Shown here: positions 1-64,000 of the stretch, piece by piece
Numbering within the stretch: position 1 is the stretch's first letter
Layout of the letters: each line of letters starts with the position of its first letter
NCBI GenBank assembly: GCA_963729615.1
Contig: CAVSOI010000012.1
Span: 457,236-521,235, forward strand
Source: an uncultured Cytophagales bacterium
GTDB lineage: Bacteria; Bacteroidota; Bacteroidia; Cytophagales; Flammeovirgaceae
DNA length: 64,000 bases
Reading direction: 5' to 3'
The notes under the pieces: generated by a model
What the model saw: the letters and a program-made list of their open reading frames with translations, nothing else
Database searches by the model: none
What the model was told of the DNA's origin: nothing
Made by a program: the position numbers and the translations under genes

Positions 1-2
1 AG

Positions 3-251
3 GAAGATATTTTGAGCCAAATTACTTTCTCGGAAGTGATGAACGCCATCAAAAAAATACCCGTTGGCTATCGGGAAGTGCTGAATCTTTATGCCATTGA
101 CGGCTACACACATAGGGAAATAAGCAAAATGTTAGATATTTCCGAAGGGAACTCCAAGCAAAGAGTCAGAAGAGCCAGAAATATGCTCAAAGAAATTATT
201 TCAGAAAAATCTAATTCAGAAGGTTCAAAATTGAATGAAACAGCGGCTTAA
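3..251 (+). CDS. RNA polymerase sigma-70 (ECF-type) factor, C-terminal region-4 fragment; 5' end lies outside the window
   Basis: Translation ...VLNLYAIDGYTHREISKMLDISEGNSKQRVRRARNMLKEII has the typical sigma region-4 helix-turn-helix. The open frame runs to the window edge. Confidence 0.7.
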   Translation, partial: EDILSQITFSEVMNAIKKIPVGYREVLNLYAIDGYTHREISKMLDISEGNSKQRVRRARNMLKEIISEKSNSEGSKLNETAA

Positions 252-2924: not shown

Positions 2925-3710
2925 ATGACAGCGAATAAAATTCCTAAAAACCGAATCAAACCTGTTAAATCTATTTTGGTTTCCCAGCCAAAACCTTCCA
3001 ACCCGAATTCTCCTTACTTTACCTTGGCAGAAAAATACGGATTGAAAGTAGATTTCATTCCTTTCATTGAAGTCGCTCCCGTAGATTTGAGTGAGTTCAG
3101 GAAACAAAAAGTGAAGATTTTAGATAACACCGCAGTTATTTTTACGAGCAGAAATGCCATTGACCATTTCTTTCGCATCTGTAAAGGCATGAAAGTAGAA
3201 GTTCCTGCAGATATGAAATATTTCTGTATTTCGGAGCAGACCGCTAATTATTTGCAGAAATATATTGTCATCAGAAAGCGGAAAATCTTCTGTGGCACAA
3301 GAACTGCCAAAGATTTGCTCGAAATCATTAAGAAATATCCAAAAGAGAAGTTCCTCTATCCTTGCTCAGACATTCGCAAAGGCGACATTCCCGATTTCAT
3401 GGATGAGAACGATTTCAGCTTTACCGAAGCAGTTCTCTACAAAACCGTAGCCAGCGATTTATCTCATTTAGATGACGTAACCTACGATATTATCGCCTTT
3501 TTCAGTCCTTCGGGAATCAATTCGCTTTACGTAAATTTCCCGAATTTCATGCAGAACACGACTCGTTTGGCAGCTTTTGGACCAACCACAGCTTAAGCCG
3601 TTTTAGACAAAGACTTGTTTTTAGATATTCAAGCCCCTATGCCAAATGCGCCATCTATGACGGGCGCAATTGAGATGTATGTGAAAGAAGCAAACAAATT
3701 GAAAAAATAA
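2925..3710 (+). pseudogene. hemD: Uroporphyrinogen-III synthase (HemD) interrupted by an in-frame TAA at 3594-3596; the frame continues to the stop at 3708-3710
   Basis: The N-terminal 223 aa is HemD-like (ILVSQPKP...VIFTSRNAIDHFF...). After GPTTA* the same frame continues as AVLDKDLFLDIQAPMPNAPSMTGAIEMYVKEANKLKK, the conserved HemD C-terminus, where TAA sits in the position Lys (AAA) would occupy. Confidence 0.6.
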
Positions 3711-3991: not shown

Positions 3992-4035
3992 CTATCCATC
4001 TATCCATCTATCCATCTATCCATCTATCCATCTAT
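3992..4035. repeat. Octanucleotide microsatellite (CTATCCAT)n, about 5.5 copies
   Basis: Read directly: ctatccatctatccatctatccatctatccatctatccatctat. Confidence 0.9.
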
Positions 4036-4084
4036 TTTATTCGTTAGCGCAAGCAAGGTTTCATAATAACCTTTTTTTATCATT

Positions 4085-5546
4085 TTAGATTTTAGCCAAG
4101 CATAAAAACTCACCGCTTGCAAATCTTCCTCCTCGAATGGCAGAAACTCTAAGGGAATTATCTACTTTTTCTATGAAGTCGGGCTTGCTTACCAAATTTG
4201 GGTCTTTGAAAAGCAGTTTTATGAGCTGAATGAATTGCCTGACGTTCTGATAATTTGGTTGGGCAAAAATAGCTACATAGTTCCTTTCTATAGTTCTTAA
4301 CTTGTTGATTGCCAAATCGTAATCTCCAAAATCATAGTAGAAAATCATTTCGGACATACTCTTTTTGATAACCCAATCTCGCCCCATTTTCTTCTCGTAA
4401 TATTGGTCAGAGCGGTTGAGTTCACGCAAGTAACCAGATGCCTTCTCATATTTTTCTTGTTGGAAATAATAGAATCCTAAGTTGATAGTTAGCTCAATTT
4501 CCTCTTTGTCTGAAAGCTTGTACTTATTCTCTCTCTTCATCTGCTCCAAAACTGCCGTGGCTTTTTCCAATTGGTTGGAGAACACCAAATTGGCTGCCAA
4601 AAGTAAGCAATATTTTGGGTAGAATATATCGAAATAAGCTTTTTTCCCCTCAGAAAGGTTTTCAAAAAGCAAATCCAAATACTGAATTGATTCCTCAAAC
4701 CGTTTGCTTCGGTAAAGCACATGGCTTACCATGTAAAGCAAATTCAGTTTATAGTAAAGGTTGGATTGGGAAAAACCATGTTGCTGTTCAAATTGCTCAT
4801 ATTGGCTGAGTAGAAATGGCGCAAAAGCATGGTAATCTTTCTTTACCAAAGCGGCACTTCTGGCAATGGACATGAGGTTGAAAAACAAACGAGGCCTTTT
4901 GCTGACTGCTTCCGAAAGTCCGTAGCCCTCCAACACTTTCCGAATAATTTTCTCGAAATCTATATTTCCGCCCGTCAGCTTCACTAAACTGAGCGATTGT
5001 TGAATCAGGCTGTTGGCAACATTTGCCCGTTCGTCCTCATCTGCCAAACGTTTGTTTTCTTCCCATTTCACTACAGTCAGTTGCAAAGCTTCGTCAGGAT
5101 TGTGTGTAGTATATTCTATCTGGAGATTATAAATTGTGTTCAATAAATGAAATTGCTCGCTTTCTTGCGCTTGTTTTTCTCCCTTTTTCAAGAATTGCCA
5201 CGCCAATTTGTGCCTTCCTTTCCCCAATAAATACTGCGACATGGAAATCATTCCCATCACAGAAGAAGCTGGCCGAAGTGTCTTCGTCCATTCTTTTCAG
5301 CACAATGAAATCCAACAAATGACGCATGAGCCGTTTCCGCAACGCATGGTAGGCAACCGTATTCGCTTTTTCCGGATAGAGCTTCCCAACAATCTCTTTC
5401 GCTTTATAGTCTTTTTTCTGTTGCAGGATTTCAAAAAGCTCAAAATCCTTCCGATTCTTAGACTTTTTCTGCCTGCGGATAAACACGGCAAATTCTCGCC
5501 TATCTTCCGCAGAAAATGTTTCTATGATTGTTTTTAGGTTGTCCAA
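4085..5546 (-). CDS. Hypothetical regulatory protein with TPR-like helical repeats, in two overlapping frames (apparent 1-bp indel near 5262-5270)
   Basis: ORFs 5127..5546 and 4085..5260 overlap. Frame 1 ends ...DEDTSASFF and frame 2 continues SSVMGMISMSQYLLGKGRHK... across the run cttcttc. Confidence 0.45.
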
Positions 5547-7963: not shown

Positions 7964-7991
7964 AATCGGTTGGTTTTGATGAAGGTTCCAA

Positions 7992-8130
7992 GGAACGGAA
8001 ATTAAATAAATGCGTGTTTTGTCGCAGATTATTTTTGAGGCTAGTCTAGGCAAAAAACACAGTCATAGCAACGCTATGACGAGTATTTATAATGAAGTAC
8101 AGCGTGTCCCGGACCAAAAAGAAGCAAGAG
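7992..8130 (+). repeat. Repeat family A (MITE-like), copy 1
   Basis: Shares ends GGAACGGAAATTAAATAAATG...TTTATTTTTGAGG and ...GACAGCGTGTCCCGGACCAAAAAGAAGCAAG with the copies at 15040, 22060, 24835 and 48594. Confidence 0.8.
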
Positions 8131-8172: not shown

Positions 8173-9510
8173 CTATAAGAAATTTGGCCTTTTTACATCT
8201 TTTGGTAGCTTGCCAAACTTCTTTAGCTCCTCATACATGTATATTATCACCTTGTTTAAATGTTGCATAGCACCTGAAACCTGGTGGTCTCCGAGTTTAT
8301 TTATCTTATAAAGAGATTCGATATGCAAAAAAGCTTTGTGGAACTCTTTTTTGGCCATAGCCAGCTGGGATAACATTATTTGTAAAGAGAAGAACTCGGA
8401 GATATGGAATTCTATTCTATCAGGATAAAATTGCTTGAGTGAACTTTTGCCATCCAGTACACTTTCAGCCTCTTCTAATTTTCTTTTTTTCAACAAAAGC
8501 GATACCAGCGATGTGTATCCAAATAAGTAGTCAGGAAATTTCTCGACAGTAAGTTTGGCATATTTCATGGCCATTGCTTCATCTCTATTTCTTTCGTAAG
8601 CAACAGTTATGAAATTATAAAACGGTTTGTAATTAGGAAATTTTTTAAGCTCTTTTTTAATCCTGCTTATGGCAACATGGGGAATCCCATACAAACATAA
8701 ATGGTGCAACTCTTCAAAATCTGGGTGAACAAAATTGTCTTTGCCAGTGCTAATGGGTTCATCTGTGATTTTATACTGCTCATAATCAGATGGACTTAGG
8801 TTTTCCAGAGTAGGAATCTCCACCCGTTCTATGTTATCAAGGTAGGCCTGATAGATTTTAAGTTCGTTGTTGCTTAGTATTTCCTCTAAACTTTTGCTGA
8901 TGAAATCATCATCGGTATTAGCCATATAATCTGAAAAATAATAGACCCTGAAATTTCCTTCGCCCAATGTTTTCTTCATGGTGGCTATTTCTTTGCTCCC
9001 ATTTTCATTTTCATCTAGAATCAAGGTATGAATTCCGTTATCCCCTACGGGTATATCTTCATACTCAATCTCATCTTCGTCATCTATCAGGTGCTTTACC
9101 AGCGCAAAATCTTTGTGAGGCGCAAACCCAGCCTCTGCGGCCCAATCCAAGGCTTCGTAAATCATATTATATGCCGTATTGGCACTTATCTCTGTAAGCG
9201 GAAAAGGGTTAAAATCATACAACTCCTCAAACTCATGAAGAGGCATGTTGAATTTATAAAAAGTATCTTTTATGCCTAAGCAGTAAAAATCTATGAGAAA
9301 AATGGCTACTGTGATGTTTCCTGAAGTGTGTTGCCTAGCAATGTAGATGCTCGCTTTTCCTATTTCTTCCCAATCCGAGGTGATAGCACATCTATAGATA
9401 GGCAATTTCTTGCCCATTCCGGACCTGATGTATGCCTGAGGAGATTTAGGTGTATTTTTATGAGCCGATGATTTGATTGATTTTTTCTTGAGTTTTTTCA
9501 TAAGTGCCAA
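8173..9510 (-). CDS. Hypothetical protein, TPR-like C-terminal half
   Basis: 445-aa ORF with no recognisable catalytic motif. Coding-like composition. Confidence 0.5.
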   Translation of the reverse strand: MALMKKLKKKSIKSSAHKNTPKSPQAYIRSGMGKKLPIYRCAITSDWEEIGKASIYIARQHTSGNITVAIFLIDFYCLGIKDTFYKFNMPLHEFEELYDFNPFPLTEISANTAYNMIYEALDWAAEAGFAPHKDFALVKHLIDDEDEIEYEDIPVGDNGIHTLILDENENGSKEIATMKKTLGEGNFRVYYFSDYMANTDDDFISKSLEEILSNNELKIYQAYLDNIERVEIPTLENLSPSDYEQYKITDEPISTGKDNFVHPDFEELHHLCLYGIPHVAISRIKKELKKFPNYKPFYNFITVAYERNRDEAMAMKYAKLTVEKFPDYLFGYTSLVSLLLKKRKLEEAESVLDGKSSLKQFYPDRIEFHISEFFSLQIMLSQLAMAKKEFHKAFLHIESLYKINKLGDHQVSGAMQHLNKVIIYMYEELKKFGKLPKDVKRPNFL

Positions 9511-11908: not shown

Positions 11909-12964
11909 ATGATTGAATACATAGAAATAAAGAACTTCAAAAGCATTGAGAACCTGAGAATTTCAGGTTTGAAACGTGTGAATTTAATTTCTGGCAGAAA
12001 CAACACAGGGAAATCTAGTGTGTTGGAGGCTTTGGTTTTGTATGGTTATGGAGTTGATATTGGAGGGATTTCCAGAATTGTGGAAAACAGGCTTGAGAAA
12101 AAAAACAAAAAAACTTTTGAAGACATTTCGATACTACTGAACAGAAATTCCGAGTTGTTTGAGACATTCTCTGTTGAAACTGATTTTTTAAGAATCGTAT
12201 ATGGCTTTCATCCAAATGAAACTACTTCATCTCAAAAATCAAAAAAACACTCTCCACAGGGAGTTGAAAACAAAAAATACATAAAAAAGAACGGCATTGG
12301 ATTTTCTTCATATCTCTATGGCAAGTCTGAAGATATTGAAGATAGCTTGGTTTTAGAAAACCAAGAAGATATCAATAATGCTATTGAAAGCAAATGGAAC
12401 AATAGAGATATATTTGTGGAATGGGTGGATACATTCCGTTCAAAAGATGAAGAACTAGCTCTTATTTACGATAAAATCACTCTAACCGATTTAGAAAACT
12501 CCGTAGTTGAAGGTTTGCAAATTATCGAACCCGACATAGAAAGGCTTGCTTTTGTTTCAGGTAAAACTGGAGAAGGTCGTCATGCAGTTGTGAAAATGAA
12601 AGATAATGGAATTTATCCGCTGAGTGAAATGGGCGATGGTATCAACAGAATCCTTCACATTATACTTTCTTTGGTGAATGCAGAAAATGGGTTTTTGCTG
12701 ATTGATGAAATAGAAAATGGATTGCATTATTCAGCATTGGAACAATTATGGAAAGTGATTTTTGTACTCTCTGAAAAGTTAAATGTGCAAGTTTTTGCCA
12801 CTACTCATAGTGTTGACTGCATCCAATCTTTTGCGCTTCACCCTGATGAAGAAAATAAAAACTATTTCAGATTGGATAAAATCAATGGGGAGATTACCGT
12901 AGAGGATTATTCTTCAGAAGAATTGAAAATTGCTGTTCAGAACGATATTGAAACACGAGCATGA
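11909..12964 (+). CDS. AAA/ABC-type ATPase (AAA_21-like), predicted defence-associated ATPase
   Basis: Walker A GRNNTGKSS; Walker B / D-loop LLIDEIENGLH; H-loop TTHS. Confidence 0.7.
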   Translation: MIEYIEIKNFKSIENLRISGLKRVNLISGRNNTGKSSVLEALVLYGYGVDIGGISRIVENRLEKKNKKTFEDISILLNRNSELFETFSVETDFLRIVYGFHPNETTSSQKSKKHSPQGVENKKYIKKNGIGFSSYLYGKSEDIEDSLVLENQEDINNAIESKWNNRDIFVEWVDTFRSKDEELALIYDKITLTDLENSVVEGLQIIEPDIERLAFVSGKTGEGRHAVVKMKDNGIYPLSEMGDGINRILHIILSLVNAENGFLLIDEIENGLHYSALEQLWKVIFVLSEKLNVQVFATTHSVDCIQSFALHPDEENKNYFRLDKINGEITVEDYSSEELKIAVQNDIETRA

Positions 12965-13582
12965 TGAATGGCAAGCAACATTTATTGGTAGAAGGCAAAG
13001 GAGATGAACACGTCATGTATGCACTTTGCCAGAGGTTCGATTTGGCGAAAAGCTTTGATGTGAAATCCCCAGATGGAATAGATAATTTGTTTAAGCAACT
13101 TCCTGTTGTCTTGAAAAACAAACCCAAAACGGTCGGAATCGTAATTGATGCAGACCAAAATATAGAAAAGCGTTGGGAGAGTTTGAAAAGGTTACTTTCG
13201 CCATTGGGCTATGAATTCCCTAAAAGCCCAACAGAATCAGGGACAATTCTAAGAAGCCCAAACAAAACAACTATCGGGGTTTGGATTATGCCAAACAATA
13301 GGCTGAGTGGAATGCTAGAAGACTTTATGAAATACTTGATTCCAGAAAGACGACAAGCTATTGCCAAAAGCGGAATCAATTTTAAAAGAACTCGAAAAGG
13401 AAGGGATTGAAGGATACAAATCCATTCATCATTCAAAAGCACTGATTCACACTTGGCTTGCTTGGCAAGAAAACCCAGGAACTCCTTTTGGATTGGCAAT
13501 TACAAAAAAGTATTTTTCTACTGATGAAGAAAACTGCAACATATTCATCAATTGGCTTAACGATTTGTTCAATCCAATTTGA
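12961..13582 (+). CDS. DUF4276/TOPRIM-like partner of the upstream ATPase, split by a 1-bp indel in an A4 run (about 13363-13366)
   Basis: The N-terminus LLVEGKGDEHVMYAL carries a TOPRIM-like EG motif. ORF 12961..13410 and ORF 13361..13582 join as ...AIAK/AESILKELEKEG... if caaaag is read as caaag. The gene overlaps the ATPase stop (ATGA). Confidence 0.5.
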
Positions 13583-13937
13583 AGACAATACGATAACTTA
13601 TTAACTCAAATCACGAATTCGCTGATTTCCACTTGCTTTCTCACCTCTTGACCACTACTTTAGTAACATTTGTAGATAAAATAGTTGCAATCGTATTTGA
13701 TAAAACTAATTTGGTAGTGATAAACTGGTAAGGCTAACAAAATAAAAACCATAGCGCAAGCGTCCGCTTGTGACGAGTTATCCATAGAGTAACCTTACCT
13801 CTTTCACACTACCGCTCATTTATCTGCTCACTCCACAAAAGCTAAGCACTTTGTGCTATTTACTAGCGAGGGTCGCACCCTTTTATAATTTCCTATAAGT
13901 GAGATTGTTAAGAGCTCAAAACAGGAAAGTATTCAAG

Positions 13938-14132
13938 CTAGTGCATTGAGTTCTAAGTTATGGTTGGTATTTTTTGGAATATTTTTTTCTTCTACAAAGC
14001 AAAATCTGAATGGTTCGGCAATCCGATGGTTCGACATTTCGACATAGCCTAGCTACGGCTAAGAAATTTAATGCAGTAGAAGGAAAAAAGATACATAAAA
14101 TACAATCACGAACTTAGGAATTGATGCACTAG
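13938..14132 (-). repeat. Repeat family C (MITE with ~20-bp TIRs CTAGTGCAT...), copy 1
   Basis: Bounded by ctagtgcattgagttctaag ... cgaacttaggaattgatgcactag. Homologous to the copies at 33356 and 60438. Confidence 0.8.
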
Positions 14133-14152
14133 ACTATTTACAAGCAGGAAAC

Positions 14153-14602: not shown

Positions 14603-14756
14603 ATAGATGATTGATTGATTAGATAATTTGCTGATGCGATGATTTTAAAGAAACGAAATTCTAATTCAGAGAATTTTTGATTGACAAGATGGCGAATCGA
14701 AGTCTCCTAACTTCAATTTCTGTATTTTCAAGTTCTTTACCTTTATAAGTAACAAC

Positions 14757-15010
14757 CTAAATAATGGGTTTAAAAATTTGATTATCAGCAGGTTAACTGT
14801 GTTTTTTTTAGTATAGTCAAAAATTAAGATTTAATGTATTGCACTATTTTTAGATTTAATTAAAAACTGTATGTCAATATTTTGACTAAATAAAACAATA
14901 TTAAGTTGCTGATTAGCAATTACTTAATTCATTTTTAATTTTTAATTCTTAATTCTTAATTTCCCCAATCAATAATTGTACTTATCAAATATATAACTCA
15001 TAATTGGGGT
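14757..15010 (+). repeat. Repeat family B (AT-rich, ~270-bp MITE-like), copy 1
   Basis: Starts AACCTAAATAATGGGTTTAAAAAT and ends ACTCATAATTGGGGT, with an internal (TTAATTC)n microsatellite. Near-identical copies lie at 15381, 25226, 43391 and 52033 (reverse). Confidence 0.85.
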
Positions 15011-15039
15011 TAACAGTAAAATAATAACCTGCACATCTC

Positions 15040-15205
15040 TCTTGTTTCTTTTTGGTCCGGAACACGCTGTCTATTCTTCGTTAAAAATCTCGCCATAGTG
15101 TCGGACTGGCGTTCCGGTGCTATGACTGCGATTTTTGCTCGGGGCACGTTGCCTAGACTAGCCTCAAAAATAAACTGCGATAGATGCACACTTTATTTTT
15201 TCGTT
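15040..15205 (-). repeat. Repeat family A, copy 2 (reverse)
   Basis: ctcttgtttctttttggtccggaacacgctgtc ... gcctagactagcctcaaaaataaactgcga is the reverse complement of the copy-1 ends. Confidence 0.8.
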
Positions 15206-15380: not shown

Positions 15381-15653
15381 TACCTAAATAATGGGTTTAA
15401 AAATCTGATTACCAGCAGATCAACTGTATTTTTTTTAAGTATAGTCAAAAATTAAGATTTAATGTATTGCACTATTTTTAGACTTAATTAAAAACTGTAT
15501 GTCAATATTTTGACTAAATAAAATAATACTAAGTTGTTGATTAACAATTACTTAATTCATTTTTAATTCTTCATTCTTAATGGCCAGGCCACCCTGTCTT
15601 CATTTCCCCAATCAATAATTGTACTTATCAAATACATAACTCATAATTGGGGT
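15381..15653 (+). repeat. Repeat family B, copy 2
   Basis: Near-identical to 14757-15010. Carries an extra GGCCAGGCCACCCTGTCTT insert. Confidence 0.85.
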
Positions 15654-15730
15654 AAGTTATTGCAGTCTGGACTCTCCAATTTTCCCAACTCTAAAAATCC
15701 CCAAAATTCCCGATACTGATTTAACTTCAT

Positions 15731-15806: not shown

Positions 15807-17037
15807 ATGAAAAAGAGATTTTGCCATTTTTGCGGTGCTGGAGAAAAAGAAGTTGAATTTTTAATTGCGGGCGTTCATGCCGATATCTGCAATGGTTGCG
15901 TTGACCAAGCGCATGCCATTATGGCAAAAGAGCGTGGGGAAGACCAAAAACCATTGCCTGCTTTGAGCCTGAAGAGTCCGATTGTGATTAAACAGCATTT
16001 GGACGAATATATTATTGGACAGACAAAAGCCAAAAAAGTGCTTTCCGTAGCGGTTTACAATCATTACAAACGTCTGATGCAGAAAGTGAAAGACGATGTG
16101 GTGGTGGAAAAATCCAATATTGTGATGGTTGGCGAAACGGGAACTGGAAAAACTTTATTGGCAAAAACACTCGCCAAAGTCCTCCAAGTTCCATTTTGCA
16201 TTGCTGATGCCACCGTAATTACTGAAGCAGGTTATGTGGGCGAAGATGTGGAAACCATCTTGACCAGATTGCTCCAAGCGGCAGATTACAATGTGGCTGC
16301 AGCCGAAAGAGGAATTGTTTACGTGGATGAAATGGACAAAATTGCTCGGAAATCTGACAATCCATCCATTACGAGAGATGTGAGTGGCGAAGGTGTGCAA
16401 CAGGCAATGCTGAAACTCTTGGAAGGAACGATTGTAAATGTGCCACCACAAGGCGGAAGGAAACATCCTGAGCAGAAAATGGTGGCAATCAACACCGAAA
16501 ATATCTTATTTATTTGCGGTGGAGCTTTTGATGGAATCTCCAGAATCATAGCAAAACGACTAAACACCAAGCCATTAGGTTTTGTGAACGATAAAAACCA
16601 AGGCGTTGAGTTGAACGAAGAAAACTTGTTGCAATACGTAACTTCCCAAGACTTGAAATCATTTGGGTTGATTCCCGAACTCATCGGACGTTTGCCAGTT
16701 GTGGCTCATCTGAATCCGCTCGATAGAGAAGCATTGAGGGAGATTCTGACGAGACCAAAAAATGCGCTTGTCAAACAATATCAACGCCTCTTCGAAATGG
16801 AAGGAATTGAGTTGAACTTTACCGAATCTGCACTTCCAATATATTGTAGATAAAGCAATTGAGTTCAAGTTGGGAGCGAGAGGTTTGCGTTCTATCTGCG
16901 AATCAATTATGCTCGAAACAATGTTCGATATCTCAATCCAAAAAGCTGAGGGCGTGAAGGAAATCATTGTAGATGAAAACTTCGCCCATCGCCATTTCGA
17001 GCTTTCTGGCGAAGCATTTAGGTTAAAGGCAGCGTAA
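15807..17037 (+). CDS. clpX: ATP-dependent Clp protease ATP-binding subunit ClpX, with an apparent 1-bp insertion near 16836-16840 splitting the frame
   Basis: N-terminal C4 zinc finger CHFCG...CNGCV and Walker [13 protein letters not shown]. The ORF ends ...ESALPIYCR*, but the +1 frame continues [22 protein letters not shown]..., the conserved ClpX C-terminus. Reading ccaatatattg as ccaataattg restores [12 protein letters not shown]. Confidence 0.85.
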
Positions 17038-17332
17038 GAAAAGTCTGAAGTCTTTAGTAATAAGTCTTTAGTACAAAGTCAGAAGATAGGATTATTAAAA
17101 TTGCTTACGTAGAGTCTATAAATAGAAGAAAAAAATAGCTGCTTTCAAAAAATACCAACCAGAACTGAGAACTCAATGCACTAGTGCATTAAAATTGACC
17201 GAATTACCTACGTTTGTTGGATTCTAAAAACAATGCTTCAAATAATTCTGTTTGAAATCATATACTTTTTTCAAAAATCACAAATTCCAACTTTGGACTT
17301 AAGACATTGGACTTTGTACTAAACATAAAATT

Positions 17333-25496: not shown

Positions 25497-25498
25497 AG

Positions 25499-33092: not shown

Positions 33093-33130
33093 AAAACAGT
33101 AGTGAGTAATGAGTAGTTGGTATTGAGATT

Positions 33131-42395: not shown

Positions 42396-42404
42396 CTTGT
42401 ATTG

Positions 42405-43390: not shown

Positions 43391-43661
43391 AACCCGAATA
43401 ATGAGTTTAAAAAATTGATTATCAGTAGGTTAACTATAATTTTTTTAGTGTGGTCAAAAATTAAGATTTAATATATTGCACTATTTTTTGATTTAATTAA
43501 AAACCGTATGTCAATAGTTTGGCTAAATAAAATAACATAATTTACTGATTAACAATTACTTAAGTCATTTTTAATTCTTCATTCTTAATGGCCAGGCCAC
43601 CCTGTCTTAATTTCCCCAATCAATAATTGTACTTATCAAATACACAACTCATAATTGGGGT
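43391..43661 (+). repeat. Repeat family B, copy 4
   Basis: aacccgaataatgagtttaaaaaattg ... ctcataattggggt. Contains the GGCCAGGCCACCCTGTCTT insert. Confidence 0.85.
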
Positions 43662-43714
43662 ATTTAGGTTTCCCCAAAATTAAATGCGGATGAGGCAGTT
43701 GCTGTACTCGCAAC

Positions 43715-46700: not shown

Positions 46701-47198
46701 CACGCTTTTCTGGTTGTAGGCAATGGAATCTTTCAAATTGATGAAAACACTGGAATAATTCTCATTGAGTGGCAAGCCAATGCTCAATCCGTCTTGGTCT
46801 TTGAGATTGTAAATGGATTTCTCGGAGAGGTTCGTAATCAGTACATCATCATAATTATAAGTCTCTTTCTTGGCAAGAAAAAGTGTGTCTAAGGAATTTC
46901 CAATACTATCGAAAATTGGGTAGGAAATGGTTGGGTCGTAGAATTCGAGCGCACTCACAGCTTGTAGCAAAATAGGATTTTCCGCCACCTGATTGATGTG
47001 CCGTTCCAAGTCTTGAAACATATTCTCAATCTGATTCGCCTTAAGGGAACTGACCAGCTCCAAACTCGAAGTATATCTATCTCGAATGAGTTCCTTGCTT
47101 TGGTTATAAGACAAATAGCTGATGGCGACTACCGATAGCAGAATAACTATCAGTAACCGAAGGGTTATTTTCCGACTTATTTTGACGTTCTTAAACAT
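43715..47198 (-). CDS. Multidomain sensor PP2C phosphatase (SiaA/SpoIIE-like): TM, periplasmic domain, TM, HAMP, GAF, coiled coil, PAS, PPM phosphatase; an apparent 1-bp insertion about 45095-45105 splits it into 701-aa and 464-aa ORFs
   Basis: C-terminal PPM motifs GDFPWYFKK...VAAVDCTGHGVPGALIS...FFFSDGLTDQFG. PAS ...LQVDHVHPDSVPTYENMFEEVL. The upstream ORF ends ...YLQEELIEAAG* and the next frame continues RLQVDHVHPD. Confidence 0.7.
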
Positions 47199-48345: not shown

Positions 48346-48593
48346 ACAAATTACTGTTCACAATCTCCAACCGTATTCTTCACAAAAAATTAAATTCCTA
48401 TTTAGGTATATGACGATTTTGAAGTTTACAAAATGAATTTGCTTCCCTCCAAAGTTAGAGTATGTTTGAATCGACTTAATTTTTGGTTTCTACGGCTTTT
48501 CAAAAATACCTGCTTCGTTGTTTTCTCCCCGAATAGCTTTGTGTTTTGAAAATCTCGTAAGATTCCCAAAAAATCAATCCAAATATACTCTTA

Positions 48594-48764
48594 GGAATGA
48601 GGATTAAATAAATGCGTGTTTTGTCTCAGTTTATTTTTGAGGTCGGGTCGAGCCAGATTGGCTACGCTAGCTAGTCAAGGCAAAATTTGCAGTCATAGCA
48701 CCGCTATGCGAGATTTTTAACGAAGAATAGACAGCGTGTCCCGAACCAAAAAGAAACAAGGGGC
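48594..48764 (+). repeat. Repeat family A, copy 5
   Basis: ggaatgaggattaaataaatgcgtgttttgtctcagtttatttttgaggtcgggtcgagcc ... gacagcgtgtcccgaaccaaaaagaaacaagg. Confidence 0.8.
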
Positions 48765-51662: not shown

Positions 51663-52032
51663 GGTTGGATTTAGTTATTCATAGCTTATGGCTCACGCAG
51701 AACCTGCCGATATTTGCCAAAATAGCACATTTGCGAGTCTGAAAACAGACACAGTCAAACGCATTTTATCTTAATTTTGCGTGGACTTTATCCTTATCAA
51801 AATTAAAAAATATTATATTCAAATGGCAAATTACATATCATAGCTTAGATTTGGTACTTTTGCAGAATCATTAAAGAAAAGTGATAGCAGTTGGATTTCA
51901 AATTCCCTAGTTTTTGAAAAGTTCTGGACTCTACTGTCTCCAACCAAAAAGCAAGTTTGAGAAAGAATAAGTACAAGTACAAAATAGAAAGTTGGATGGC
52001 CGATGCCATATTAAAATAGAAAGTTGAATATT

Positions 52033-52301
52033 ACCCCAATTATGCGTTATGTATTTGATAAGTACAATTATGGATTGAGGAAATTAAAACAGGGTGGCCT
52101 GGCCATTAAAAATGAAGAATTAAGAATGATTTAAGTATTTGGTAATCAGTATTTTGATTTTATGAGTTCCGTTAAATTATTGTCATATAATTTTTGATTA
52201 AATCTAAAAAAAGTACAATATAGCAAATCTTAATTTTTGACTACTCTAAAATAACACGGTTAAATATCTGAAAAACAAAGTTTTAAACTCATTATTCGGG
52301 T
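52033..52301 (-). repeat. Repeat family B, copy 5 (reverse orientation)
   Basis: accccaattatgcgttatgtatttgataagtacaattat ... aaactcattattcgggt is the reverse complement of the family B ends. Confidence 0.85.
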
Positions 52302-54311: not shown

Positions 54312-54692
54312 ATGGGAAATCACAAAGCAGGTTCGACTGAACTAAAGGTGGATTTGGTGGCAGGTTTTGCATCGTTCAAATTTCTTCCTCCTCCGTTTTC
54401 TGTCGGGCATAACAACCTGAATCCCAAGCTTATTCTGAAAGAAAATGGACTAGAGTTTCGTGGCGCATTCTTCACAAATCATAAAAAGTACGGAGACATT
54501 GAAAAAGTAGATTGCTCAGTTTCAAGTATTGGTCTGTTTGGAAAGAATATGATTCGGCTTTCTTTCACTGATACTATTTTCACATTCTCTGGAAATATAA
54601 GAACACTGGAAGGATTGAAAGAAGTGCTGGCTTTTTTGGATGGCAAAGGTTGCTTGCTTTCGGAAAAGGCGAAAAATCTTTTAGAAAACTAA
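54312..54692 (+). CDS. Hypothetical protein
   Basis: 126-aa ORF with coding-like composition and no recognisable motif. Confidence 0.35.
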   Translation: MGNHKAGSTELKVDLVAGFASFKFLPPPFSVGHNNLNPKLILKENGLEFRGAFFTNHKKYGDIEKVDCSVSSIGLFGKNMIRLSFTDTIFTFSGNIRTLEGLKEVLAFLDGKGCLLSEKAKNLLEN

Positions 54693-55315
54693 TTTGAATC
54701 TTCCAAGCTGTTATAATACTCTACTACCAAAGCCATATCAACTCTGTTTTCCACCCGAAGTCGATTGGTTTTTATATATCGTTTTACTTTCTCGAAGTGG
54801 TTGGAGAATGATAATTCTATCATGTCTTTTGGCGACTCGAAACCTTCAATTCTGGCATCGCTTCCCATTAGGAAATAATTCTCTTCCTGTTGCAAAGTTG
54901 TGTAGGCAGGACTAGAACCCATCCAAAAAGGGTCATAATAGTAACGGGTTTCCTGCACTATTTCCTCACGAGTCAGCAAATTCTTTTTTCCTTCCACCAA
55001 AAGTTCAAAAAAGTAATTCCGCTTATAATTATTTTCAAAAGCATACGGTAGAGAGAAAAAATAGCGTGTTCTAGCTGTCAGCGCATCTGTAAACTAAGCT
55101 GATTCCACTTGGTTCGGGTTGAGCGAAAGAACTTGACTACCTGTGTTGAGCAAAATGACATCGGACTCCAAATTATATTTTAGCTTTCCTTTCAAGGTTT
55201 CTCCCTCCCGCAAATCTACCACTCCTTCATGCCACATTTCGGAAGAAAACCGCTGTGAATAAGCCGAAAACATAATAATATTCAGCAAAAATGTGAGTTG
55301 AAGTATTTTTTTCAT
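54689..55315 (-). CDS. Secreted hypothetical protein with an in-frame TAG at 55091-55093
   Basis: ORFs 55094..55315 (with signal peptide MKKILQLTFLLNIIMFSAYSQ) and 54689..55000 are in the same frame. The open reading continues straight through a single TAG. Confidence 0.4.
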
Positions 55316-57481: not shown

Positions 57482-57560
57482 ATTAATGATTGAACTATTT
57501 TTAATTCTTAATCTCTCAATCTACAATTGTATTTATCAAACATATAACTCATAATTGGGA
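57482..57560 (+). repeat. Repeat family B, 3'-terminal fragment
   Basis: ...tttttaattcttaatctctcaatctacaattgtatttatcaaacatataactcataattggga. Confidence 0.6.
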
Positions 57561-57575
57561 TTGATACTAACAAAT

Positions 57576-58043
57576 TTACTCCTGCACTCTATATTTCAAT
57601 TGCATTCCGTGAAGGAAATTCCTCAAAAATTGGTCTTTGCAAGGGCGAAATTGGCTTTGAGTAGGCTTTCGGAAAAAAGCACTCAATTCATGTTTTCCAA
57701 CCTGAATGCCTGTGAGGCTCATGATATCCAACATATCTTCCGATTTCAGATTGAGGGCAATTTTCAATTTCTTCAAAATCAAGTTATTGTCAGTCTTGCT
57801 TTCGGCTTTCGGAGTTTCCTTTCCTTCTTGCTTTCCCCTTTTGTCAATAATCAACCCGTTCAGGAAAGAACTTAATTCTTTGTCTCGCAACTGAACGAGT
57901 TCTGGGTCATCATCTTTTTTGAGCCATTGGCTTACTCGCGCTCGGTCGGCTTCCAAATCTCCCAATCCAAATAGCTGAATCATTTTTGAATCGCTGAAAT
58001 CGAAAGCGTAACGGACTCTGCGCAAAACATCATTATTATTCAT
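57576..58043 (-). CDS. DUF1456 (YehS-like) family protein
   Basis: 155 aa: MNNNDVLRRVRYAFDFSDSKMIQLF..., with two repeated DUF1456-like halves. Confidence 0.55.
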   Translation of the reverse strand: MNNNDVLRRVRYAFDFSDSKMIQLFGLGDLEADRARVSQWLKKDDDPELVQLRDKELSSFLNGLIIDKRGKQEGKETPKAESKTDNNLILKKLKIALNLKSEDMLDIMSLTGIQVGKHELSAFFRKPTQSQFRPCKDQFLRNFLHGMQLKYRVQE

Positions 58044-58266
58044 GGTAAAGGAGGGTTTTTTCTGTATTTAATGGGAACGCTGTGTTTCAAAAGTAAAATT
58101 CTGAGTTTTGGTTTTCACTTTCTTTGGTTCTTTTCAAAGTTATCAAGAATGTGTGCAAATTTTCAAAAGTGGGCGAAAATAGAAGAATCTGGGTGTATGA
58201 CAAATTCGCATAAAACTTCAGAAATGCCTTATATTAAGTTGTAGAGATTAAAATTGCCATACAATA

Positions 58267-59676
58267 TTGATAATCAATATCATATGGCAAATATATTTTG
58301 CAAAAGCCTTATATTTGTTTCGATTAAAAAAACATTTACTCGGTTTTCGTAAAATACACTGCAATGATAAAAAAAACTTTAGGCAAAAGATAGTTTCCCT
58401 GACGAAGAAATACCTGGAAAACGACTATTTCGATATTTCCAAACAGCTAGATTCAGTATTTTCGGCATCTGATATTTCAAAGTTCGAGGAGTCCGACCTG
58501 GATTTTTTCGAGAAAATGAATGCTCTGCTGTTCCTGGGTCAATTGGTGGGACTGCCCACGCTGAAAAGTATTCTGACCAAGTTCGGCATTGCCAGCAACA
58601 GGTTGCAGAAAAACTACACGAAGCTATACAAGAAGCTGACTGTAAGCAAGTTGCGTATTATTTTCGAGTTCATATTTGAACAGCAGGCAGTCGGCATTTT
58701 GAGGGAAATGGCTCTGAAAGACTCTTCCATCTGGTCGAAAAAAAGAGTGACTGCCGTTCTGGATGACAGTATTTTCCGCCAATGGCTTTCTGGGTCGGCA
58801 AGGGACGGGGCGCATTATGGCAAGTTCTTCAGCGGGCAATACCACTGCTCGGTCTTCGGCTTCAAAGTAGTGTGTTTTGGACTCTATATTGACGGTATTT
58901 TCTACCCCCTGTTTTTTGATTTCGTCAAGAAGAAAACAGGGGAGCAGGGCAATCAGGCGATTGAGGTGGCAAAAAAGCTGGTCTCCCGCTGGGGCAGGCT
59001 CAAGGGCAGACTTGCCAGGGAAGGCGTCATGTTGCCGAACATCCATTTCAGCTGCGACAATGGATACAATGACGTCTCGCTGAGCGGGCATTGCGAGAGG
59101 CAGGAAAATGGGCTGGTCTATATCAGCGTGCCGAGGAGAAACAATATTTTTACCATCGATGAAAAAAGAGGGAGCCTGACTGAATTCATCGATTCGGAAT
59201 TTATGACGGAGGAACTGGCACATCGGCAGAACGAGAGACACTTGAAAGAAGAGAGTAAAACGCCCTTCTGCCTACGGAAAAAGGCGTTTTACCACAGCCA
59301 GCAAAGGTATGTGACCCTGCTGTTTTTCAGGCTGAATGGCTCGGGGAGGGTAAGCGTCATCTATTCGCCAAGCGAAACGATCTTTGCAAAGACGCTGCGC
59401 AGGCATTGGTTCAGCCGAACCTACATAGAGCAGTTTTTCAAGACCCTCAAGCATGTGCTGAGAATTACCGAGGCCAGAACGAAAGACAGGCACGAGCTGG
59501 AATTCAAGATTCTGCGATTCGCCTTCATGGCTGTGGAGGCACAAAGGATAGTCAAGTTCCTGAGAAGGAAATTCAGTGCATTCAAAGGAAAAGGTTTCAT
59601 CGCCCTGCAGAGAATACTCTGTTTTGAACAGGAAATAATAGACCTTTTGCAAAGCAAAACACATGTAAAATACTGA
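58267..59676 (+). mobile_element. IS4/IS5-superfamily DDE transposase gene in a locally GC-rich island; element ends not resolved
   Basis: Motifs LDDSIF...DNGYND...RRHWFSRTYIEQFFKTLKH (the Y-R-W-IE-FK pattern of IS4-family transposases). The 58.8-59.5 kb stretch is visibly GC-richer than its flanks. A 17-nt palindrome ATATTGATAATCAATAT lies at the 5' edge. Confidence 0.65.
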
Positions 59677-60017
59677 AAATCAAACCCTTATAAAGGAGTT
59701 AAACTCTACAAATTAAGGCAAAGAAAACGGCTATGACTCTGAGAAAAGAAGATTTTTTAGCACTAATTGGTTGTTGGTCTCGCAGTAAATATTTTTATGT
59801 ACGTTTTTTTTGATTTATTATTCTTGCTCTAAATATAATGCTGAAGGATTTTATTGCTAATTCTACCATGCTACATGATAATTTTTCTCAATAGCTTAAA
59901 TTTCAGCCTTTCTACCTCCCCTAACCCCTCCAAAAGGAGGGGATTTAGCTCCTTCCCCTTTTAGGGCAGGGGTGGGGTAAAATATTGGCTCTCAAAAATT
60001 GTCATGTAGTATGTAAT

Positions 60018-60395
60018 TCTACTCGACATTTCCCACCCTTTTTTTTAGAGAAATTGTATTTTTTAGATACAATTTTATTGGCGGATTGAGAACTCGGCAG
60101 TGTGCTGTCGATGGCGACCCCCGTTTGCACCTGCCGAAGGTCGGACCCGAAGGTCGGGACCCGATGTTCGGGAATTGTTGAAAAGCTTTTGGGTTCGTTG
60201 TTTTCTCGCTTACTAGACTGGCGGGAGCGAAAATGCACACCGCCAGCTAGTCGCTTTGCGAAATGAGTTTCAGTAGTTCAGGATATTCGGAAAAAGCACT
60301 TAGTATTTGAATAGTTATGTTTTTTAGCAATTAAGTGTAATTACACAATAAATACCAAAAGTCAATTTTAAGGGTGGGAAATGTCGGTTCTACTT
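60018..60395. repeat. Composite MITE-like element with ~23-bp TIRs (TCTACTCGACATTTCCCACCCTT / AAGGGTGGGAAATGTCGGTTCTA) enclosing a family-D GC-rich core
   Basis: TIRs read directly. Interior gtgctgtcgatggcgacccccgtttgcacctgccgaaggtcggacccgaaggtcgggacccg... Confidence 0.65.
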
Positions 60396-60437
60396 TAAGA
60401 CTCTGAAAATACAGAACTCGTTTACCACTAGCTGAAG

Positions 60438-60633
60438 CTAGTGCATCAACTCCTAAGTTCGCATTCGTATTTTATGTTTCTTGTTTCCTTCTACTGCATT
60501 AAAATTCTTAGCCGTAGCTATGGCTATGTCGAAATGTCGAACCATCGGATTGCCGAACCATTCAGATTTTGCTTTGTAGAAGAAAACAATATTCCAAAAA
60601 ATACTGAAAGGAACTTAGAATTCAATGCACTAG
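60438..60633 (+). repeat. Repeat family C, copy 3
   Basis: ctagtgcatcaactcctaagttcg ... cttagaattcaatgcactag. Confidence 0.8.
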
Positions 60634-60754
60634 TGGCAATTGAATCAGCACTCAGAAAGCTTATTCATTGCATCCACCTTCAGATAGATATTTAGAATAA
60701 CAACCCAAAAATGACACTTGAAATGCGATTCCGGCTAGAGTCTTAAAGTAGAAC

Positions 60755-60815
60755 TAAACTAGCCTCAAAAATAAACTGAGGCAAAACACACATTTATTTA
60801 ATTCCCATTCCTTAG
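60755..60815 (-). repeat. Repeat family A, terminal fragment (reverse)
   Basis: gcctcaaaaataaactgaggcaaaacacacatttatttaattcccattcc is the reverse complement of the family A 5' end. Confidence 0.6.
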
Positions 60816-60981
60816 TATGATTATTGCCTATTTGTAATTTTAAAATTGCACCAAGCAAAGATATTGTTTAGAATATTCTAAGAATTGACGGTTGAATTAG
60901 GCTAAATACGCTTCATAATGTTTTTTTCCAATTTTTGCTTTTCTATTTTACTATTTCGCTAACTTACTATCCGAACTGGGT

Positions 60982-63900
60982 TTGGGAAGAATCAAACAAC
61001 ATATTTACCTAATTACCGCAATCATTTTCATTATGTTGATGATTGGGCTTAGGCAGTTTTTTTTTAGTGAAACAAACGTTAGCTCTTACGTTGAGCAAAT
61101 CAAGGAAAATCTGAAAATAGTCTCTGAAGATGCTGACAATGACATTTTCTATGTAAAAAAGAAACTGAAAGAAGCGAATACAATTCATTTTGGCGATTTT
61201 TTGGAGGAAAATAAATATCCAATCTTCATTTTCAAGAATAAGAAATTGGTCTATTGGTCAGACCATACTTATTACCTGAACTATTACGATTTAATTGGTT
61301 ATTATGATGAACGTAGCATAGAAACGAAGCGAGGGATATTCATTGCGAAAAAATCTATGATTATGCTCGATAATCAAGATTATGAAATCGTGGCGCTCAT
61401 TCCCATCAGAAGAAGATATCAGGTTGACAATGAGTTTCTTAGGCCTACATTAAATCCCGATATTTTCCCTGGACAAAGAGTGCGAGTTAGCACCAGCAAG
61501 GGAAACCTGATTGACATTTACAACAACTACAAAACTTACCTTTTCTCGGTAACTTTCCCTGAAGATTTCAGCTACCATTCCGAGCAAAGATGGATTATGG
61601 TGGTTCTGATGGGAATTGTAGTCTTACTTTTATTGCTGCAATTACAGAAATACTTGCAAAAACTTTTGCGAAAAGGGCAAACACTCCGAGCCACGCTTTT
61701 ACTTGCATTCGGTTTGGTTTCCGTTCGGGCAATTATGCTCTACTACCAAATTCCGTATGATTATTTGGAGTACGAACTATTTGAGCCTCAAGTATTTGCA
61801 TCATCTCTGATGAATCCTTCTTTGGGAGATTTATTCATCAATTCGCTTTGCATTCTGGTCATCATTTTGTTTTTCTATGCGAATTACCCGAAAATAATTC
61901 GCTACAAAAAAATCCTTTCCTTTCCGAATTGGGCAAAAGCATTGATTTCGGTAACTGCGGTGGTGCTTTCCTATTTCGTGGTTTTCGGGATTTACCAAGT
62001 GCTGAAAACAATTTACGATAACTCACTGATTTCCTTGGACATTACGCAGGGAATTGCCTTTCCTGTTATCAAAATCGCCTGTCTTTTGGTGTTTGTCTGT
62101 TTGGCAATTGGCTACTTTTTCACAGCACACATTTTCGCTAAACTGCTCATTAAGCTATCAAATAACTCTTACGATTTGCCAATACGCTTCGTAATGGGCA
62201 GTTTGGTTTTTTACCTGATTTCTTTATTGTTCGGATTTGAAAACATCACGCTTTTCAATGTAAATGCCATCTATATTCTCTTCGTTTCCTTTTTGGATTT
62301 ACCAATTTCGCTGAAACGTTCAGATTACAGCACTTATATTTATCTTTTCGTTTGTGCCGTAGTAGTCTCTACGGTTGGAGCATATTCTATCTACAAATTT
62401 GAGGAGGAAAGAACCATTGGCAACAAATACAAATATGCCAATACGCTACTGATTGAAAATGACTTATTGGGAGAATATTACTTAAATGAAATGACCAAAA
62501 AGGCTCAAAAAGATGTTTCCATCCAAAATAAATTCAAAGATGGCTCCACAGCCTCCATCGAATGGATGGAACAGAAAATACGGAGAATGTACTTTAATCG
62601 CTACTTCGACAAATACAACATCAATATTTTATTTTTCGATAAAGACCAAAAACCCTACAACTCCAGAAGGTATTATAATATAGAATTTGCTTCAAAAAAC
62701 AGGGCGCAATACAGAACTGAATACGAAAATATTTACTTCATCAACGATTTGACAGGAGGAACGAAAAGTTACGAAGTCTTCATTCCCATCTCAAAAGATT
62801 TCAACAGATTGGGTTTCATTCTGATGAAATTAGATCTTCGGAAAGTCATCCCGAATAGCATCCACCCTAACTTTTTTGTGGATAAAAAGTACCAAGTCTC
62901 CGATGAAGCGAGCAATTACAGTTATGGAATTTACTCCAAAAATAGTCTGCTTTTCAGTTCGGGCGAGTTTGCTTATGGCAATAATCTGCTGAAAGAGTTT
63001 GAACACAACATGGGTTTTCTGAAAGATGAAGTGGAGACAGAAGGTTTTCATCATTTACGAGTCGCAAATGACAATGACCAACAGATTGTGATTTCCTCTC
63101 CAATTTACCCAAACAATCAAATCCTTACTAATTTCTCCTTTTTATTTCTACTTCTCGTCTTTGTGCTTCTGCTGATAATTTCCGGATATAATTTCTGGGT
63201 CAGGCAGAACAAAGCCACTTCGCAAGCCAAAAAATTGAATTTCAATACAAAAATTCAGCTTTATTTGAACTTCGCCTTCTTTGTGCCACTCATTGTCGTC
63301 AGTATAATTGTGGTAAGCATTCTGAATTCTTCCAATATTCAAGAAACCAAAACCTACTATTTGGAGAAAGCAGAAAGTATTGCCAATGACCTCATGAGTC
63401 ATGTGCAAGAGTTTTACAATGGTTCCTTAGAAAAATCCCAACTCCAAAACTACATTTCCGAAATTGCCAATATTACGCAATCAGACATTAACCTATTCGA
63501 TAAAAACGGGCAGTTGATTGTTCCTAGCCAAAATTATATCTATGAAAATGAACTGATGAACAGCGTGGTCAACCCTCATGCCTATGCGCAACTTATTGAG
63601 GAGAACCAAAGCAAAGCCATGTTCGATGAGTCAATAGGAATGCTCAATTTCAACTCTGCTTATGTGAGTGTGAAATCATTGGAAAATGGAGAGGTTTTGG
63701 GGATTGTGGGCATTCCCTTTTTTGGTTCAAAACAAAGATATGAGAAGCAAGTAATTGATGTACTTTCCAAAATCATGCAAGCGTTTGCCTTTATTCTGAT
63801 AGGCTTGCTTGCCATTTCCTATTTCTCTGCCCGAACTTTGACCGCTCCACTAAGGCTGATTCGCCAAAAAATCCGAAAGGTAAGTTTTCAGGAGAACAAT

Positions 63901-64000
63901 GAGCCGTTAGATTATGTTTCTGACGATGAAATTGGCCTTTTAGTGAGTGAGTACAATAAAATGCTAGTGAAGTTGGAAGAAAGTAAGCGAGCGCTTTCCA
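60982..64000 (+). CDS. Large membrane sensor (probable histidine kinase): signal-anchor, extracellular domain, ~7 TM block, second extracytoplasmic domain, TM, HAMP; 3' end outside the window
   Basis: Open frame from the TTG at 60982 (first ATG at 61033) to the window end; it was not listed in the ORF track because it has no stop. Multiple hydrophobic helices, then a HAMP-like ...LRLIRQKIRKVSFQENNEPLDYVSDDEIGLLVSEYNKMLVKLEESKRAL at the end. Confidence 0.6.
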   Translation, partial: MGRIKQHIYLITAIIFIMLMIGLRQFFFSETNVSSYVEQIKENLKIVSEDADNDIFYVKKKLKEANTIHFGDFLEENKYPIFIFKNKKLVYWSDHTYYLNYYDLIGYYDERSIETKRGIFIAKKSMIMLDNQDYEIVALIPIRRRYQVDNEFLRPTLNPDIFPGQRVRVSTSKGNLIDIYNNYKTYLFSVTFPEDFSYHSEQRWIMVVLMGIVVLLLLLQLQKYLQKLLRKGQTLRATLLLAFGLVSVRAIMLYYQIPYDYLEYELFEPQVFASSLMNPSLGDLFINSLCILVIILFFYANYPKIIRYKKILSFPNWAKALISVTAVVLSYFVVFGIYQVLKTIYDNSLISLDITQGIAFPVIKIACLLVFVCLAIGYFFTAHIFAKLLIKLSNNSYDLPIRFVMGSLVFYLISLLFGFENITLFNVNAIYILFVSFLDLPISLKRSDYSTYIYLFVCAVVVSTVGAYSIYKFEEERTIGNKYKYANTLLIENDLLGEYYLNEMTKKAQKDVSIQNKFKDGSTASIEWMEQKIRRMYFNRYFDKYNINILFFDKDQKPYNSRRYYNIEFASKNRAQYRTEYENIYFINDLTGGTKSYEVFIPISKDFNRLGFILMKLDLRKVIPNSIHPNFFVDKKYQVSDEASNYSYGIYSKNSLLFSSGEFAYGNNLLKEFEHNMGFLKDEVETEGFHHLRVANDNDQQIVISSPIYPNNQILTNFSFLFLLLVFVLLLIISGYNFWVRQNKATSQAKKLNFNTKIQLYLNFAFFVPLIVVSIIVVSILNSSNIQETKTYYLEKAESIANDLMSHVQEFYNGSLEKSQLQNYISEIANITQSDINLFDKNGQLIVPSQNYIYENELMNSVVNPHAYAQLIEENQSKAMFDESIGMLNFNSAYVSVKSLENGEVLGIVGIPFFGSKQRYEKQVIDVLSKIMQAFAFILIGLLAISYFSARTLTAPLRLIRQKIRKVSFQENNEPLDYVSDDEIGLLVSEYNKMLVKLEESKRALS

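Follow-up and report, generated by a model that had tools for sequence, protein, structure and literature searches.

Disrupted genes of the window

The stretch of DNA considered here, referred to as the window, comprises 64,000 nucleotides of contig CAVSOI010000012.1 (positions 457,236 to 521,235 of the forward strand) from an uncultured Cytophagales bacterium of the Flammeovirgaceae (assembly GCA_963729615.1). Judged by its proteins, it belongs to Bacteroidota/Cytophagales, close to Flammeovirgaceae. It has a G+C content of 38% and a coding density of only ~76%, and 14 of its ~49 genes (29%) are disrupted by 17 lesions, namely 15 one-base insertions or deletions (indels) and two in-frame stop codons. 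This amounts to about one lesion per 2.9 kb of coding DNA, or 0.027% of the bases of the window. On the basis of sequence comparison, the 15 indels are very probably residual consensus errors, and the corresponding genes would then be intact in the organism.

Two sister species, both largely syntenic with the window, serve for that reason as frame references. Species B is the European Nucleotide Archive (ENA) assembly ERZ25039505, represented by contig_1274 (365,117 bp) and contig_9447 (190,294 bp), whose names are in the style of Flye; its loci (L082, L083 and L090-L092) share 82-90% nucleotide identity with the window. Species C is represented by short-read metagenome contigs of the Joint Genome Institute (JGI), found in many samples, and its loci (L049, L061, L081, L084-L089 and L093-L097) are 75-87% identical to the window. 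Lesions were called by tblastn with intact sister orthologues, by the continuity of Pfam profiles, and by pairwise and three-way DNA alignments. The disrupted genes, with lesion coordinates on the + strand of the window and protein lengths in amino acids (aa), are as follows:

2925-3710 (+): hemD; in-frame TAA at 3594-3596, the protein ending at 223 of 261 aa
~4008-5546 (-): TPR-like gene of 512 aa; +1 at 4147-4150, near codon 466 (base present in the window only), and +1 at 5270 (T on the + strand), near codon 92 (tblastn frame switch)
12961-13582 (+): DUF3226 gene; +G at 13349 (Pfam profile split over frames)
15807-17035 (+): clpX; +C at 16833 (called gene of 348 aa, not 409 aa)
25500-26466 (-): hldD; +G (+ strand) at 25658, near codon 269 (tblastn and alignment), and -1 at 26364-26365, near codons 33-56 (base missing relative to L083)
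26524-26971 (-): gene of 154 aa; +A at 26622 (base present in the window only)
27117-27711 (-): gene of 198 aa; +G at 27367 (alignment)
33541-34708 (-): speH-speE fusion; +G at 34051, GG->GGG (absent from two sister species)
34783-35416 (-): outer-membrane beta-barrel of 211 aa; +1 at 35203 (base present in the window only)
36120-37004 (-): lipoprotein paralogue 1; +T at 36185, 20 codons before the end (base present in the window only)
37294-38202 (-): lipoprotein paralogue 2; -1 at 37809 (C4->C3) and +G at 37864 (both private to the window in the three-way alignment)
38574-41652 (-): TerB-ABC transporter of 1025 aa; +G at 41236, G->GG (base present in the window only)
43715-47198 (-): SiaA-like sensor/PP2C phosphatase of 1163 aa; +G at 45100 (CCT-CAG versus CCTGCAG)
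54689-55315 (-): secreted-protein gene of 208 aa; in-frame TAG at 55094-55096 (Gln in five homologues)

Both in-frame stops replace glutamine codons. In hemD, CAA has become TAA: the two sister species read GCC CAA where the window reads GCT TAA, intact orthologues measure 261 or 262 aa, and the 38 codons past the stop are conserved in frame. In the secreted-protein gene near 55 kb, CAG has become TAG (TTC CAG or TTC CAA in the sisters versus GCT TAG in the window), and the five homologues are continuous across the position.

Among the frameshifted genes, the TPR-like gene is hit near both ends. The intact 512-aa orthologue changes frame at 4148-4155 in tblastn, where pairwise and three-way alignments place the extra base in the window alone, and at 5270 the three-way alignment shows CCAGCTTC in the window where both sisters read CC-GCTTC. 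The Pfam profile of the DUF3226 gene is matched from position 2 to 139 in one frame and from 133 to 208 in another; the frames meet between LIPE and xDKLLPK in the protein alignment, and the DNA alignment gives GAAA-ATGAC in L097 of species C versus GAAAGACGAC in the window. The called clpX gene extends only to position 351 of 418 in the NCBIfam ClpX profile, its C-terminal part lying in the next frame, and the extra C is absent from L081 and L097. Once the C at 16833 is deleted, ClpX measures 409 aa and deviates at none of 154 columns invariant among 59 homologues, including the stretch downstream of the lesion.

The orthologue of hldD passes the curated threshold of the heptose epimerase model TIGR02197. 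When the 321-aa orthologue is the tblastn query, the frame changes at 25659/25660, the alignment there reading CAAT-AAAGG versus CAATGAAAGG in the window, and the N-terminal 56 aa fall in another frame. The two small genes that follow are divided in the same manner: the L083 orthologue of the 154-aa gene is split over two frames at 26624-26664 in tblastn, and an orthologue of the 198-aa gene at 27364-27404, where GGCA-TTT is aligned with GGCAGTTG in the window. The AdoMet_dc, Spermine_synt_N and Spermine_synth domains of the speH-speE fusion are spread over two frames that switch at 34049-34056, and the OMP_b-brl_2 match of the beta-barrel begins only at profile position 47, with a frame switch at 35199-35204.

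In lipoprotein paralogue 1, the orthologue aligns over residues 1-273 of 294 only. The inserted T replaces the last 20 residues; the conserved C-terminus SSAQVT.ITNILKDIR is found in the next frame. The 302-aa orthologue of lipoprotein paralogue 2 is aligned end to end, and the stop at 37843-37845 belongs to a 55-nt out-of-frame segment enclosed by the two indels. The inserted G at 41236 cuts the TerB domain off from the ABC transporter body, so that orthologue residues 1-139 and 143-1025 lie in two frames with the TerB domain in the upstream fragment. Likewise, the PAS domain of the sensor/PP2C protein, for which an intact 1163-aa orthologue exists, is shared out between two open reading frames (ORFs).

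All 11 genes that an initial annotation of the window had listed as disrupted proved to be so by tblastn with sister orthologues and by Pfam continuity, and its observation that the conserved protein resumes in the adjacent frame holds for every indel in the orthologue alignments. The list was an understatement, with four further frameshifts now added (the second hit in the TPR-like gene, the 154-aa gene, lipoprotein paralogue 1 and the TerB-ABC transporter). Some details required correction: the gene labelled DUF4276-like is Pfam DUF3226 and its lesion lies at 13349 rather than in the A4 run at ~13366, while the 3' lesion of hldD, assigned to a T-run at 25690, is a G inserted at 25658.

Indel spectrum, selection and sister assemblies

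Every one of the 15 indels is exactly 1 bp in size, 13 being insertions and two deletions. Among the 11-12 insertions that could be resolved, the bases gained on the + strand are seven G, one or two C, two T and one A, a bias toward G with P ~0.003, and 8-9 of them are non-templated, the added base being unlike both of its neighbours. Replication slippage would concentrate indels in homopolymers of at least 5 nt; none of the 15 lies inside such a run (547 runs, 4.7% of the window). The earlier statement that several indels sit in homopolymers was largely wrong, as only those at 34051, 37809, 41236 and 26622 (A->AA) touch runs at all, and these are 2-4 nt long. A sense-strand-specific insertion of C, as in an editing-like process, was also considered and is ruled out by the lesions at 13349 and 4147 in the window and at 56350 and 34356 in species B, which point in the opposite direction.

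The pattern differs from that of real pseudogenes. Those of Burkholderia, both reductively evolving and free-living, carry 300 insertions versus 396 deletions (ratio 0.76), 1-bp events account for 131 of the 396 deletions within a power-law distribution of sizes, and about half of the insertions are direct repeats (PMC6054270). Relative to this spectrum, the insertion excess of the window has P ~7e-4, and an exclusively 1-bp pattern has P <=5e-4 even granting that 60% of natural indels are 1 bp long. The deletion-biased, varied-size and templated spectrum of natural indels is absent from the window. Nonsense mutations are too few as well: with a substitution-to-indel ratio assumed to be near 10:1, about eight stops would be expected to accompany 15 frameshifts under natural decay, and two are observed (P ~0.01).

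Selection was assessed by a three-way codon comparison of the window with species B and C over nine genes. In six disrupted genes, the ratio of non-synonymous to synonymous substitution rates (dN/dS) on the window branch is 0.038 (264 synonymous and 37 non-synonymous changes), and the same six genes, where intact, show 0.056 in species C and 0.053 in species B. Purifying selection is thus not relaxed in the disrupted genes, and because their dN/dS is low, any inactivation must be younger than ~3% of the window branch.

Under real decay, lesions would be expected to accumulate in genes that are already dead, while some other genes stay free of them. In the window, the lesions are placed in proportion to gene length, without an excess of multiple hits and without over-dispersion: 14 genes are hit, compared with 13.6 +/- 1.4 in simulated random placement over coding bases, and three are hit twice, compared with 2.8 expected. 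No positional clustering of the window lesions was detected (Kolmogorov-Smirnov p = 0.25).

The lesions are also private to the window, none of its frameshifts being conserved in either sister species. Over ~20 kb of genes common to the three species, 10 lesions fall in the window, two in species B and none in species C (P = 0.001 for window versus C under equal rates). The sole characterised frame-breaking lesion of species C is a natural-looking 10-bp tandem duplication in the DUF3226 gene of L097. Tandem or multi-nucleotide substitutions were also examined as an error signature and show no excess in the window (66 tandem runs versus 69 and 174 in the sister lineages).

Species B, in turn, has lesions of its own where the window's genes are intact, among them +C at window-equivalent position 34356, an extra base at 56350 (L091 ~10860), and eight small indels in its GAF, CheB and CheR genes (L082 6929-9932; window-equivalent 47.7-50.3 kb), four of which are non-templated +G insertions at window-equivalent 49116, 49984, 50127 and 50230. 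The nucleotide identity of these lesion-bearing genes is ordinary (82-89%), and the cluster is probably a low-quality patch of the species B assembly. The same unusual +G signature is thus seen in two different organisms with long-contig assemblies, and it is lacking in the short-read one. In L091, the alpha-amylase of species B is divided into three ORFs.

Mobile elements, repeats and neighbouring genes

The window contains several mobile or repetitive features and a number of gene modules around the disrupted genes:

58267-59676 (+), flanks 58050-60900: DDE transposase of 469 aa, matching DDE_Tnp_1 only weakly (below the Pfam cut-off)
8173-9510 (-): 445-aa ORF without a match in Pfam, NCBIfam or PADLOC
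11909-13582 (+): AAA_15 ATPase and DUF3226 pair, the PADLOC candidate defence system PDC-M38 (components A and B)
42030-47198 (-): SiaA-like sensor/PP2C (Cache-HAMP-GAF-PAS-PAS-SpoIIE, 1163 aa when repaired), then DUF6272 and SiaC-family genes
MITE-like family 1: 14754-15028, 15382-15671, 25226-25514, 43391-43679, 52031-52254, 57517-57579
MITE-like family 2: 7990-8130, 15017-15115, 22048-22320, 24803-25060, 48582-48760, 60752-60815
MITE-like family 3: 13935-14134, 17143-17186, 33353-33537, 60435-60635

The DDE transposase sits between a DUF1456 gene and a HAMP sensor gene, where it is inserted relative to species B. It has 14 near-identical copies (88-99% identity) on at least eight long contigs from NCBI/ENA, the window's own contig carrying two, and several copies bear identical frameshifts (one following codon ~302, another at codon ~398). 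Because shared frameshifts in these protein sequences fit inheritance and context-specific error alike, the insertion sequence (IS) copies cannot be used as an error gauge.

The three dispersed families of intergenic repeats resemble miniature inverted-repeat transposable elements (MITEs), are 60-280 nt long and occur in both orientations. They make up most of the ORF-free stretches and also represent insertions relative to species C (e.g., 33096-33530 and 43137-43715). RNA genes were considered as a cause of the ORF-free stretches and discarded, a search of the window that included these stretches having returned no ribosomal RNA, transfer RNA or Rfam match. The final 3 kb of the window is one long ORF running past its end. 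The 445-aa ORF adjoins a family 2 copy, is missing at the equivalent site in species B, and may be mobile-element cargo.

In this PDC-M38/AbiL-like candidate pair, the AAA_15 ATPase also matches AbiLi, and the +G lesion lies in the component B gene. In species C, the component B gene carries the 10-bp tandem duplication, while the component A gene is called as two ORFs. The SiaA-like gene is preceded upstream by a GAF protein gene and CheB/CheR-like genes, and the 42030-47198 region resembles a signalling module of the partner-switch or biofilm type. Two gene fusions are common to all three species: speH (S-adenosylmethionine decarboxylase) with speE (aminopropyltransferase), 396 aa at 33541-34708 (-), and a TerB N-terminal domain with an ABC-2 type transporter, 1025 aa at 38574-41652 (-).

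Origin of the lesions and relation to known systems

In the window itself, the lesions exist, are assembly-specific, of +/-1 bp, insertion-biased and randomly placed, and the genes that carry them have remained under strong purifying selection until the present. Their cause would presumably be at the sequencing or consensus step, and the source is presumably a long-read assembly, to judge from the 618,830-bp contig and from the same signature in the Flye-style sister assembly ERZ25039505. A long-read genome or metagenome assembly of low or modest coverage, or with insufficient polishing, would keep spurious single bases, mostly insertions, and each extra or dropped base would shift the frame, whereupon gene callers would emit two fragments or a truncated protein. 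Consensus error in place of decay, as the initial annotation had already proposed, is the reading best supported by the 1-bp insertion-biased indels, the low dN/dS, the random placement, the sister comparison and the flawless repaired ClpX, and the feature as a whole is most probably an artefact rather than real biology. The additional argument that joint loss of clpX, hldD, hemD and speE would be biologically implausible is only moderately strong: these are housekeeping genes, as stated, but not strictly essential ones.

Several points weigh against this reading. The lesions are not the homopolymer deletions that constitute the textbook mark of long-read error, and no platform or polisher that inserts non-templated G/C can be named. 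Two substitution stops are rare under an indel-dominated error process, as ~0.7 would be expected if mismatch errors equalled indel errors. The multi-copy IS, the three MITE-like families and the ~76% coding density also accompany genome erosion, and the dN/dS test is powerless against inactivation in the last ~3% of the terminal branch. Furthermore, the collections searched hold no conspecific sequence, so the lesions are judged via sister species: protein cluster look-ups gave only the window's own proteins and the two sister species, a scan of genome contigs recovered only a sister metagenome-assembled genome (MAG), a degenerate DNA pattern spanning the clpX lesion matched no metagenome contig, a protein-guided scan of metagenome contigs found nothing closer than 62%, and the literature searched yielded no paper that names ERZ25039505.

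Some of these points also speak for real decay. The lesions would then be genuine in a lineage newly under relaxed selection, for instance through host restriction, with pseudogenes in about a quarter of its genes alongside IS and MITE spread. The 14 transposase copies with their partly shared frameshifts, the IS insertion and the extra 445-aa ORF relative to the sister species, the dispersed repeats and the two true nonsense substitutions at Gln codons are all consistent with such a course, and the limited power of the selection test leaves time for it. Repeat proliferation and ~76% coding density, however, also fit a large free-living Cytophagales genome. The indels themselves are entirely of 1 bp, 13:2 in favour of insertions; the added bases are non-templated G/C, and long A/T runs contain none of them. 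No gene exceeds a chance lesion load, no gene class is spared and no multi-bp deletion occurs, and nonsense codons are too scarce relative to frameshifts. In addition, the odd +G signature recurs in long-read species B and is lacking in the short-read sister, in which the natural-looking lesion differs in type. Real decay is therefore considered improbable. There is equally a slim chance that the indels are real and that erosion is just starting in a Flammeovirgaceae lineage rich in IS and MITE copies, as well as independently in its sister species, through an unusual mutational process that adds single non-templated G/C bases, perhaps with a CAGCTT-like context preference, about a quarter of the genes having been inactivated in the last few per cent of the branch.

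The two stops call for separate treatment: the same process may have produced them as substitution errors, or they may be genuine mutations at strain level. A CAGCTT/AAGCTG hexamer of the lesion-bearing sequence encloses the lesions at 3594, 5270 and 55096 in the window and that at 56350 in species B; when all hexamers are permuted, the window lesions by themselves have p = 0.01. This context hints at a context-dependent basecalling or polishing error, or may be due to chance, and is a lead only. Methylation-driven C>T miscalling at CAGCT was considered and rejected, because there is no general excess: of 20 aligned sites at which the window has T after CAGCT, a single one shows C in the sister, and that site is the hemD stop. 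Stop-codon reassignment was likewise rejected, given that only two in-frame stops of two different kinds (TAA and TAG) are present and that genes otherwise end normally.

It is possible, though less likely than not, that the indels are assembly errors while one or both stops (hemD at 3594 and the one at 55094) are genuine background pseudogene mutations. Both are simple changes at Gln codons and would be a minority product of an indel-dominated consensus error. In free-living bacteria, a few per cent of genes are ordinarily pseudogenes, and ~1-2 real ones per 49 genes would be ordinary background. For comparison, a short-read assembly contained 4.4% pseudogenes (PMC12007338). Against such a mixed origin, both stops, the lesion at 5270 and one species B lesion share the CAGCTT/AAGCTG hexamer, hinting at a context-dependent artefact, and the gene at 55 kb differs from both sisters at four consecutive bases (TTCC->GCTT), which resembles a local miscall more than one point mutation, even though this gene evolves fast. 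As C>T is not in general overrepresented after CAGCT, a link to the motif is unproven in either direction.

Programmed ribosomal frameshifting (+1/-1) or transcriptional slippage, which would keep the genes functional as encoded, is scarcely credible. Nothing specific speaks for it apart from the otherwise perfect conservation of the genes, whereas the lesion sites share no slippery or shifty motif and lie outside poly-A/T tracts, the orthologues in both sister species are single ORFs, and both +1 and -1 events are present.

If the lesions are consensus errors, their chief significance is as a data-hygiene warning: pseudogenes are over-called on this contig and probably throughout its assembly and the sister MAG. 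The over-calling foreseen in the initial annotation is already visible in the public protein collection, where a 348-aa ClpX, a 216-aa piece of HldD, a 223-aa HemD and the 464-aa and 701-aa halves of the sensor are held as separate proteins. For about 29% of the genes on the contig, annotation will yield a pseudogene or two separate proteins, and such fragments inflate protein-family counts, depress completeness estimates and can be mistaken for the reduced genome of a symbiont-like lineage. Given the non-homopolymer, G-insertion signature, most of the errors would escape polishers or filters that are homopolymer-aware. Were the lesions real, the window would instead show a marine Cytophagales lineage at the very onset of genome erosion.

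Among known systems, the closest resemblance is to long-read indel artefacts. Gene-fragmenting indel errors in long-read-only assemblies of bacteria and metagenomes, with truncation of the kind revealed by IDEEL, were reportedly described by Watson and Warr in 2019. As in such artefacts, one-base indels at ~0.03% of positions break 20-30% of the genes, the sequence resumes in the adjacent frame, the lesions are absent from short-read relatives, and the contig is long (618 kb). In one study, uncorrected long-read assemblies showed 23.3% pseudogenes resulting from <0.05% erroneous bases, a share that fell to 5.6% after correction, and insertion errors not tied to homopolymers are a class reported by Kastor (PMC12007338). 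Nanopore bins below ~40x coverage likewise need polishing, as indels fragment their gene calls (Sereika et al. 2022, PMC9262707). Unlike the published long-read error profile, which consists of homopolymer length errors and mostly of deletions, 13 of the 15 indels in the window are insertions, mostly of non-templated G/C.

Host-restricted genomes, such as those of Sodalis glossinidius and the Candidatus Burkholderia leaf-nodule symbionts, resemble the window in their many disrupted genes, IS elements and repeats, and lowered coding density (PMC7067036, PMC6054270). They differ in having deletion-biased, power-law indels, pseudogenes with multiple lesions and relaxed dN/dS, whereas the window has +/-1 changes only, Poisson placement and a dN/dS of 0.04. 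In insect endosymbionts, transcriptional slippage at poly(A) tracts is said to rescue frameshifts (Tamas and colleagues, 2008). The window shares with this system the presence of frameshifted yet otherwise conserved genes; the rescue, however, requires a long A/T homopolymer, and none of the 15 sites (0/15) lies in such a tract.

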